From an uncultured Dictyoglomota bacterium (GTDB lineage Bacteria > Dictyoglomota > Dictyoglomia > Dictyoglomales > Dictyoglomaceae), in the NCBI GenBank assembly GCA_964654465.1, contig CAZZIO010000065.1, positions 1 through 64,000 of the forward strand: a DNA stretch of 64,000 nt, written 5' to 3'. Below, piece after piece: positions 1 through 3,000 of this stretch. Position 1 is the first letter of the stretch. Each line of letters begins with the position of its first letter. The position numbers were made by a program.

Positions 1-3000
1 TCCTCGCTCTCTATATGCCTTCCTCTCTTCTTCCTTCTCTCTTCTCTCTCCCTTTTCTCCCTTTGTCTAATGTGCATCCGCCCTTTCTCATCGGGCGGAT
101 TAAATTCTATCATATATATCTCCCTTTTGCAAGAGGGGGGACAAGAAAAAAATATAAAAAAGCAAAAAAGCCTCTATACCTCTTGATCTTCTTCTACCTT
201 TTCTCTTCTTTGATTTCTAAACATTTCTAAAATTTCAGAGACAGAAGTTGCATCATAAGGACCTTTATCCTCTCTAATAAAGCCAATAACTCTTGGGAAT
301 CTTAATGCATAACCTAATCCATCAGTTTCTTTTCCACATGTATGCACGGGGCTTCTTGTTATTTCATCAGCTTGAATTTCTACCACATATTTAGGTTCTA
401 CCCATACATCAGGTTCTATTAAAGAATCAACATTACTGGGTTTATGGTCAACTTTTACTTCATCTAAAACTTCCCTAAATTTTACCCATTCCTCTTCCGT
501 TGGGCCTGTTCCTATTTTTGCTATAGTCTTAAATAGATCTCTCTCTTGATCATACACTCCAACAAGAAGGGCACCTATTCCAAATTTTGCTCTATGTCCT
601 CTTCCTTTAAAATATCCAAGAATCACACAATCAACTGTATCTGTGAGATGACTTTGATAAGATCTCTTTAATTTTATCCAGTTAAAATTTCTTACTCCTG
701 CCTGATATGGGGCATCTAATCTCTTAGCTACAATACCTTCCAATCCTTCACTAATACATTCCTCAAAAAACATCTGTATTTCCTTCGGATCACTGGTAAC
801 AATATTCTTTGTTATAAAAATTTTATCTCCTTCTTTTATATTCTCTTCTAATTTTTTTCTTCTTCTAAGATAAGGTAAGGATGTAATATCTTCTCCATCT
901 ACATATAAAATATCAAAAGTAAATAGCTGGAGAGGAAAAAGCTCTACCATTTCACTAATATTATATTTCCTTTTTCTTTGAACAGTAACCTGAAAAGGAT
1001 AAAATTCTCCAGTTTCGGGATTATAAGAGATAGCTTCACCCTCAATTATTATCTCCTCCTTAGGTATCTGATCAAGTATCCCTTCTACTAAATCAGGAAA
1101 CATATGGGTATTATCTTCTAAATTTCTTGAGAAAATTTTGACAATTTTACCTTTTTTATGTATCTGACACCTAAAACCATCAAACTTAGGTTCTACTGAG
1201 CATTTACCCATTTTTTTAATGATCTCTTCAGGCTTAGAAACCCTTTCAGCTAATGCCATCCTTATAGGTCTTCCAACTTGTACCTTGATTTTCTTTAGAG
1301 CTTCTGTACCTCCTTCCCAAAAAACCTTAGCCACATATCCTAAATCAGAAGTAATATTAAAAGCTCTTTCTATAAAAGACCTTAGAGTCTTATCTTTTGC
1401 CTTTGCATAAGAAAGAGCATCCATAATTGTTGGCTCTCCTATTCCAAGCCTTAATTTCCCTAAAACTATTCTTACCAGATATTTTGCTCCTTCTGAAGTT
1501 AAGGAGTTTATAAGAAAAGCCAATCTATTTACTTTGGCATCAACACTTCCTTCTCCAGAGATACTAGCTATCTCATATAAAACATTAAACACCTCAGTAA
1601 TTGATAAATCTTTTTCTCTTTCTCTATGGTACCTTATTACAATTTCTCCCAAGTCTCCTATTTCTTTATAAACCCTTTCAAGTTCTGATATAGGCACTAT
1701 AAATGCTAAAGCCATAGCTCTTAATACTAATTTTTCTGACATACCAAACTCGACTTTTTCATATTCAGGAGCAACTCTTCCATTTAATAAATAGATTATC
1801 TTATCAATTTCTTCTTTATCTGCCTTTTTAAATAAATCAGCTAATATTTCAGTCATCTCATTTCTTTTTGTAGTAATTTCTAATCTTCCAAAATATTCTG
1901 CCAATTCACTAAAAAACATACCTCTTCATTCTCCTTTCATTAAAATCTTTTGATATAATTAATTTTATCACTATAAAAAAGTAAGGGAGGAAAATTAGTT
2001 ATGGAATTTGTAAAAAGTCATGGTCTTGGAAATGATTATATAGTCCTTGAAAAAAATAAAATTGATTTTATATTAAACGAGAAAAACATTAGATTAATCT
2101 GTAATAGAAATATGGGTATAGGATCTGATGGTATCCTTGTATTTGAAAAGATTAACGATAACGAATTTGCTGTCAGAATTTTTAATCCTGACGGAAGTGA
2201 AGCAGAAAAGAGTGGCAATGGACTCAGAATTTTAGCTAAATATATATATGACTACGGTTTTACCTCTCAAAAAGAATTTTTTATACACACATTAGGAGGA
2301 AGGGTTAAAGCCAATATAATTGAGGAAAAAAATAACAAAGCAAAATGTATAGAAATTGAAATGGGAAAAGTTACCTTTAATACTAAAGAAATTCCTGTAA
2401 ATACAGAAGAAGAAGAACTTGTAGACAAAGAATTAGAAATAGATCACGAAAAAATAAAAATAACCTGCCTTTCCATAGGTAACCCTCACTGTGTGTTTTT
2501 TGTTGATAATATTGATGAAGAAAAAATTAAAAAATTAGGTCCAACTTTGGAAAATCATCCTCTCTTTCCAAACAGAACAAATGTTCAAATGGTAAAGGTA
2601 ATATCTCCTGAAAAAATAGAGATAAGAATATGGGAAAGAGGTGCTGGTTATACACTTGCATCTGGTAGTAGCTCTTGTGCAGCAGTTTCAGCAGCATATA
2701 GGAAAGGTCTTGTCAATAATTATGTAGAGGTTCTAATGCCTGGGGGTGAATTAAAAATAAGAATAAATAAAGATTGGACTGTTAACCTCATAGGTCCTGT
2801 AGAAGAAGTATTTAAAGGTCAATTCTCTGAAGAATTTTGGGAAAAACTTAAAGAGATTTAAATCATCCCTTTTTTAAATTCTGTTAATTGATATAAATGG
2901 TCTTTCTCTTGTTTTATTATCTCAGAGAGGATTTTTCTATCTTTCTCTGGTATAAATGGTTCTATCTCATAATAAAATAAAAGAGAATCCTTCTCAAGTC

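Follow-up and report, generated by a model that had tools for sequence, protein, structure and literature searches.

Bacterial ATP-dependent DNA ligases are described as always accompanying the NAD+-dependent ligase LigA in the available passages of PMC5052709 and PMC7470946. The latter, a 2020 review, adds in these passages that a bacterium without NAD-dependent ligase was not known and that finding one would help to explain bacterial NAD+ use. A 2025 review, in its accessible part, still assigns the essential role in bacteria to LigA and a repair role to LigB (PMC12133292). The mirror case, i.e., the entry of LigA into Halobacteriales, is found in an excerpt of PMC3914693.

Two replacements of LigA have been published. 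In high-light Prochlorococcus, LigA is replaced by the ATP ligase AD-Lig P, an enzyme shown to be ATP-dependent, and the replacement was argued from PF01653/PF01068 surveys (bioRxiv 10.1101/2020.05.11.089284). For Babela massiliensis and TM6SC1, i.e., for two genomes, replacement by an ATP ligase is mentioned in one parenthesis, and the portion of that paper at hand does not describe clade, breadth or mechanism (PMC4378268). The genome-wide survey's note that we followed up here had described LigA as thought to be universal and implied that its loss was without precedent; both points are contradicted by these reports. AD-Lig P differs from the ligase studied here: it has NT-OB2 group architecture (according to an excerpt of PMC7470946), is confined to one ecotype and sits at the ligA locus, and a truncated ligA as well as more ATP ligases remain (bioRxiv 10.1101/2020.05.11.089284). 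The 595-aa Babela ligase appears to belong to the same clade as ours, as judged by eye and not by placement in a tree.

Three further ligases are close in type. The Sulfolobus solfataricus ligase (2hiv/7rpx) shares three domains, all catalytic motifs and 42-43% identity in structural alignment with the Dictyoglomota enzyme and is likewise the sole ligase of its cell. Bacterial LigB shares the DB-NT-OB architecture; it is always additional to LigA, often lies in a cluster with Lhr, MPE and exonuclease genes, and some LigB proteins group with archaeal replicative ligases and are thought to be of archaeal origin (all from the accessible text of PMC7470946). Finally, the Aquifex-type ligase is an archaeal-type enzyme of a thermophilic bacterium and 43-46% identical.

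For Dictyoglomota, a single ATP-dependent ligase is listed in the available text of the D. turgidum genome paper, where the term 'ligase' appears just once (PMC5167688), the part at hand of PMC4776705 does not discuss DNA ligase, and nothing relevant was found in PMC4609770. Our search, outside of which lay subscription papers and COG tables, did not turn up any published report that LigA was lost in Dictyoglomota, CPR, Aquificaceae or Nitrospirota, nor any account of the breadth of the ligase clade described below. That is, the concept of LigA replacement is precedented, while its breadth, the involvement of a single clade and the swap of clamp motifs appear to be undescribed.

The DNA studied is contig CAZZIO010000065.1, positions 1-64,000, of assembly GCA_964654465.1 from an uncultured Dictyoglomota bacterium; this whole stretch of 64,000 nucleotides is called the window. 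The following features are referred to:

174..1919, minus strand: ATP-dependent DNA ligase gene, 581 aa, DBD-NTase-OB; no other DNA ligase was found in this genome
1410..1913, minus strand: N-terminal helical DNA-binding domain (DBD; PF04675, residues 3-170)
1608..1634, minus strand: shortened DBD loop (residues 96-104); archaeal ligases have a longer, hydrophobic loop here
666..1256, minus strand: adenylation (NTase) domain (PF01068, residues 222-418)
1170..1187, minus strand: motif I KFDGFR with the catalytic lysine K245 (residues 245-250)
264..581, minus strand: OB-fold domain (PF04679, residues 447-552)
1..141, minus strand: rRNA operon promoter-like site (132-104; taken over its full extent, the scan does not exceed chance) and leader, a contig-end repeat outside the ligase gene; an identical copy opens contig C32

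The open reading frame at 174-1919 is uninterrupted by stops. Its product matches the Pfam families DNA_ligase_A_N, DNA_ligase_A_M and DNA_ligase_A_C and scores 459 bits with TIGR00574 (dnl1; cut-off 218), i.e., the DBD, NTase and OB domains of a Lig I-type ligase are all there. The NCBIfam models of LigB, LigC, LigD and the halophile ligase all remain under their cut-offs, those of PRK03180, PRK09247 and TIGR04120 far under. Neither the NAD+-dependent LigA signature (PF01653, PF03120, zinc finger, HhH, BRCT) nor the pattern of LigD/LigC NHEJ ligases (Ku partner or PE/PrimPol domains, DBD missing) fits the protein. Sequence and predicted fold (pLDDT 87.8) both point to 2hiv of S. solfataricus as the nearest solved structure. 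KxDGxR and motifs III-VI are intact in a 15-row homologue alignment, in which K245, D247, G248, R250, E293, F335, D336, E394, G395, K416, K418, R549 and D551 are invariant. The survey's description as an archaeal-type ATP ligase with intact KxDGxR is thus borne out by reading frame, Pfam domains, TIGR00574 and motifs: judged by sequence, the protein is an archaeal/eukaryotic Lig I-type ATP-dependent DNA ligase and is predicted to seal nicks. Its enzyme chemistry is ordinary. In ATP ligases the reaction has three steps: a lysine (here K245) is adenylated from ATP, the AMP is passed onto the 5' phosphate and the nick is sealed, with the three domains encircling it.

The GC3 of the gene (0.19; neighbours 0.19-0.23) is as for a long-resident gene. 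One neighbour is the divergent dapF; downstream, the ligase stop codon is directly followed by the putative promoter and the leader of an rRNA operon (window 1-141), and no terminator-like site was found. In genome G003, 16S-23S-5S lie downstream of the orthologous gene. Because the rRNA operon adjoins, the ligase gene is found at contig ends in many MAGs. The gene order in window 2001-8643 (dapF, rubrerythrin-like, pmbA/tldD pair, DUF192, DUF763, endonuclease V) is the same in G003 and G004, and in G004 additional genes separate dapF from the ligase. Neither dapF nor the rRNA operon is informative on a role in replication.

We then consider whether LigA is present. The genome (1.91 Mb, 72 contigs, 99.97% complete) yields a best E-value of 0.21 for PF01653 and zero matches for PF03120. 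Two LigA proteins gave best E-values of 0.11 (tblastn) and 0.19 (phmmer), and a 39-protein LigA profile with filters off hit HhH motifs of UvrC, RuvA and PolX only. Over all searches, weak LigA-profile matches were HhH motifs of UvrC, RuvA, PolX and DisA, or noise. The ligase at 174-1919 is the single match of PF01068 at E<=1 and of the clade profile (filters off) at E<=10. PF01068 also finds a single match in 5/5 Dictyoglomota, except for one sub-threshold fragment. Among 11 Dictyoglomota genomes, two of them single-contig, TIGR00575 (LigA) is above its cut-off in none, compared with 11/14 controls, while the archaeal-type ligase is a single-copy gene in all 11 (72-96% identity). The absence of LigA, the presence of only one DNA ligase in this genome and its single-copy conservation had all been claimed before, and all three hold. 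Since these 11 genomes represent a single family, LigA was probably lost in one event. As possible partners in such an event we note an unclassified bacterial group (61-62% identity) and Lithacetigenota (L025-L029, L050, L051), which are without LigA, have the nearest ligases and may share it.

As the only DNA ligase found in genomes that lack LigA (11/11), the enzyme is most likely the replicative one. The note had stated that it must be; the basis, i.e., being the sole ligase, stands, and the certainty does not, as the argument runs by exclusion. We infer on the same grounds that the ligase is essential and active in vivo in joining Okazaki fragments. Enterobacterial ligA mutants can be rescued by ATP ligases from phages and eukaryotes.

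Next, we asked how far the ligase has spread among bacteria. The starting set comprised the 80 closest loci in genome_contigs, and 50 bacterial genomes among them were tested for LigA: it is absent from 48 and present in a Methylomirabilota and a Pyrinomonas genome. A census of four groups (504 genomes) was sampled evenly, with each group searched twice and each sample including its centre genome, which had been picked as a carrier. A completeness filter of 85-92% was requested except for Aquificota; most genomes are MAGs, and our completeness figures cover Dictyoglomota only, not the other census genomes. Of 151 Aquificota genomes, 111 have LigA, 36 the clade ligase and none of these LigA as well, and 2 neither; the count of 36 includes three genes cut by contig ends and one assigned by tree. 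The more distant ligase (43-46% identity) occurs in 31 Aquificota genomes, 29 of them with LigA. For Nitrospirota (111 genomes), LigA is found in 93 (two weak) and the clade ligase in 16, for the Anaerolineae class (101 genomes) in 92 and 7, respectively; no genome of either group has both and 2 of each have neither. Ordinary LigB stands next to LigA in 9 Anaerolineae genomes. Patescibacteria (141 genomes) show LigA in 107 (two weak, six split), the clade ligase in 30, both in 0 and neither in 4; close relatives of these clade ligases are mostly Microgenomates and WWE3. Summed over the four groups, 403 genomes have LigA, 89 the clade ligase, 0 both, 10 neither and 2 the distant Aquifex-type ligase only. 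In Babelota, LigA was found in 0/81 genomes and the clade ligase in 7/7 examined.

Counting each genome once, 148/153 clade carriers are LigA-negative, 14 of which are single-contig genomes whose contig is as long as the genome. The five carriers with both ligases are one Methylomirabilota and four Acidobacteriota; among further carriers tested, LigA was present in 3/5, all three Acidobacteriota. The sampled genomes are related to one another, i.e., the counts do not amount to a statistical test. In the same samples LigA does coexist with ordinary LigB, LigC/D and the Aquifex-type ligase, and the exclusion is therefore specific to this clade. Given the five carriers of both, it is near-complete and not absolute, and the clade ligase can be accessory. 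Hence the mutual exclusion proposed in the note survives in its near-complete and not in its strict form. Its pattern for Nitrospirota and Anaerolineae is reproduced on other samples (111 and 101 genomes, none with both), and the takeover by the same clade in other lineages extends beyond those first listed to Babelota, Microgenomates/WWE3 and Aquificaceae. Its placement of the two-ligase exceptions on a separate long branch was not confirmed: these genes are part of the clade, and two of them neighbour a LigA-negative Thermoflexus. Nor are Dictyoglomota the only phylum without LigA, given the Babelota counts. One clade recurs as the only ligase in Dictyoglomota, Babelota, Microgenomates/WWE3, Aquificaceae and members of Nitrospirota and Chloroflexota, and LigA would have been displaced independently perhaps half a dozen to a dozen times. 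An in-place swap at the ligA locus was not supported: across 40 ligA and 39 clade loci, no pair had more than 2 genes in common or agreed on both flanks, and smaller flanks gave no such case either.

Some unusual ligases were seen along the way. In six Patescibacteria (L372-L379 in G555, G579, G622 and G531; also G504 and G601), LigA consists of two genes on different contigs with unrelated surroundings. The first piece (~270-290 aa) covers domain Ia plus the N-terminal two thirds of the adenylation domain, the second (~310-340 aa) the remaining adenylation domain, OB, zinc finger and HhH, with BRCT missing. No intein domain was found in four pieces scanned, and the arrangement resembles a NAD+ ligase that is naturally split. 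In four genomes the sole PF01653 match is a very divergent NAD-ligase-like ORF, 600-680 aa long (G210:C1:523392-524000, G280:C149:2773-3390, G498, G637). Three clade ligases (L285, L286, L312) lie in open frames of 740-866 aa, which may reflect N-terminal extensions or just long GC-rich frames.

To place the clade, we computed three ligase trees from 71, 65 and 38 selected rows, with thin sampling of euryarchaea (one Methanosarcinales row) and no eukaryotes. All three unite these bacterial ligases and some Pacearchaeota/Nanoarchaeia, Korarchaeota-like and Methanocellales sequences in one clade, with support 100/100 in the 38-row bootstrap tree, whose bootstrap had not fully converged. When rooted with LigB, the clade is nested among archaeal-type ligases and separate from the TACK group. 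The distant Aquificota ligase, 88% identical to an Aquifex sp. sequence, nests in TACK, and an AU test rejects its union with the clade ligases (p 0.011). By its position, the Aquifex-like ligase beside LigA is thus a separate acquisition and does not contradict the pattern. The survey's caveat that Aquifex has both ligases is thereby resolved. Branching inside the clade is largely poorly resolved; the bootstrap tree did not reproduce CPR as the deepest branch, which was seen in the quick tree only. Loop-less clade ligases also occur in some archaea (Korarchaeota-like, Methanocellales; L032, L057, L062, L064, L068), possibly by transfer back from bacteria, and one Methanocellales genome has two copies. 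A comparison with the protein atlas gave generic ligase clusters only, and a short DNA pattern of the Babela ligase gene found nothing in genome_contigs.

These trees bear on a rival account of origin, though not of function, i.e., that the ATP ligase is an ancient vertical inheritance and that LigA and ATP ligase were differentially lost from a two-ligase ancestor. The clade is deep, mostly bacterial and present in several early-branching phyla, and monophyly of its bacterial members alone is not rejected (AU p 0.068). Moreover, we found no mobile carrier: viral contigs had none, the best plasmid match was 32%, and no phage match covered 80% of the length. Vertical descent is nevertheless unlikely, given the patchy distribution within Aquificota, Nitrospirota, Anaerolineae and Patescibacteria, the conflict of the bootstrap tree with the species tree (Babelota ligases group with CPR sequences, a Methanocellales sequence with a Nitrospirota one) and the nested position in the LigB-rooted tree.

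Archaeal ligases have a long hydrophobic DBD loop, which we take to be their PCNA-binding (PIP) site. In the available text of PMC9767926, the archaeal ligase is tethered to PCNA through its DBD. The loop, measured after residue 95, has a median span of 38 residues in 66 TACK-type rows and of 29 in 7 Pacearchaeota/Nanoarchaeia rows, 6 of which show a hydrophobic PIP-like word. In Dictyoglomota, Aquificota and Anaerolineae members it spans a median of 23 residues, i.e., it is ~15 residues shorter there than in the TACK type (median 23 vs. 38). It is short in 11/11 Dictyoglomota and long in 66/66 TACK-type rows; longer loops within the clade occur in 8/30 CPR and 1/16 Nitrospirota rows. This suggests that the PCNA-binding loop was lost in most bacterial members, Dictyoglomota included. 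One Nitrospirota clade ligase (L248:757-2559) has a long DBD loop with QPVSLF, which resembles PIP and beta-clamp motifs both.

Many CPR members (Microgenomates/WWE3; L349, L358, L359, L363, L445-L516) have an insertion in the NTase hairpin past motif I. Here, [LM]F occurs in 12/13 long loops (2000 shuffles: mean 2.6, max 8), in only 20/42 long loops of unnamed representatives (shuffle mean 5.4) and in 23/30 of a second set (shuffle mean 7.0, max 15); the sets consist of related sequences, and the second was chosen by likeness to a motif-bearing protein. Among the 23 [LM]F loops of the second set, 11 have Q at -3 and 14 have D/S at -1. The resulting putative motif Q-x-[DS]-L-F in an exposed loop matches the beta-clamp consensus QL(S/D)LF given in part of PMC9690074, where M. 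tuberculosis LigA is also said to lack direct clamp contact. The insert is thus a predicted tie to the beta clamp in many Microgenomates/WWE3. Long insert loops were seen in 0/64 Dictyoglomota, Aquificota, Nitrospirota and Anaerolineae rows, from which we infer that the Dictyoglomota enzyme works untethered, with its PCNA loop lost and no beta-clamp motif seen.

The host side was surveyed in five genomes (three Dictyoglomota and two other clade carriers). The bacterial beta clamp DnaN is found in 5/5, PCNA in 0/5, Ku above cut-off in 0/5 and NAD synthase in 5/5. The replisome of the Dictyoglomota hosts is otherwise bacterial, and an imported archaeal replication module was rejected on the PCNA result, PCNA being the archaeal component searched. 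In contrast to an archaeal replicative ligase, which has a PCNA-binding DBD loop and a PCNA partner, the Dictyoglomota enzyme has neither, belongs to a clade of its own and has a bacterial host equipped with DnaN. That replacement was driven by lost NAD synthesis was rejected on the NAD synthase counts. With NAD synthesis intact, the replicative ligase might use NAD+, ADP or several cofactors such that the cofactor switch would be only apparent; some archaeal ligases accept other cofactors. We regard this as improbable, since the NAD-binding domain Ia is missing and motifs as well as fold are of the ATP ligase type.

Still less probable is an accessory LigB-like repair ligase beside an unrecognised enzyme that seals Okazaki fragments. 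It would fit the DB-NT-OB architecture shared with LigB (per the excerpt of PMC7470946) and the five genomes with clade ligase and LigA, and our search covered known ligase families only. However, an unrelated repair gene would not follow the absence of LigA across six or more phyla. Unlike LigB, which coexists with LigA in the same samples, the clade ligase occurs nearly always instead of LigA, and in Dictyoglomota it is not additional to LigA. No Lhr helicase, metallophosphoesterase or exonuclease gene lies beside the Dictyoglomota ligase (neighbours dapF and the rRNA operon), the clade profile scores ~940 bits vs. ~310 bits for LigB, and the protein is below all LigB/LigC/LigD NCBIfam cut-offs. 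The notion that LigA is there but was missed owing to assembly gaps or divergence, for which one may cite the 72 contigs of this genome, the 10/504 sampled genomes with neither ligase and the NAD ligases of G210, G280, G498 and G637 that score just E 1e-7 to 1e-17, is scarcely credible and already largely refuted by 0/11 Dictyoglomota including two single-contig genomes, by negative results for two LigA domains and three more methods in a search that caught divergent and even split LigA genes, and by 148/153 LigA-negative carriers against a 2% background.

From comparative genomics, we therefore consider it very probable that a Lig I-type ligase displaced LigA in the ancestor of the studied Dictyoglomota and today joins Okazaki fragments as well as closing repair nicks. 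For this displacement, the gene would have come from an archaeal-type source and then spread between bacteria. Both ligases would have been present together for a period before LigA was lost, a state that the five genomes with both may represent, and the archaeal Lig I-type enzyme would serve an otherwise bacterial replisome. In Dictyoglomota the ligase would act untethered, while in many Microgenomates/WWE3 the inserted Q-x-[DS]-L-F loop would tie it to the beta clamp. With less confidence, we lean towards a broader reading in which an old, bacteria-adapted Lig I clade forms a second common lagging-strand solution that shed the PCNA loop and re-gained a beta-clamp motif in Microgenomates/WWE3. 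As the only ligase, it would, somewhat more probably than otherwise, serve two whole phyla (Dictyoglomota, Babelota) and sizeable parts of Patescibacteria (30/141), Aquificota (36/151), Nitrospirota and Chloroflexota. We likewise slightly favour the view that an archaeal replication enzyme was rewired to the bacterial replisome via a new motif in its adenylation domain.

An exception to LigA once noted for two lineages as isolated cases is thus widespread across unrelated bacterial groups. If LigA was indeed replaced repeatedly in many phyla, the split between NAD and ATP ligases would be a strong tendency and not a constraint, a question open to test in cultured thermophiles (Dictyoglomus, Hydrogenobacter). 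LigA could then not serve universally as a marker or drug target, and the clade would be a source of thermostable ligases that work without PCNA.
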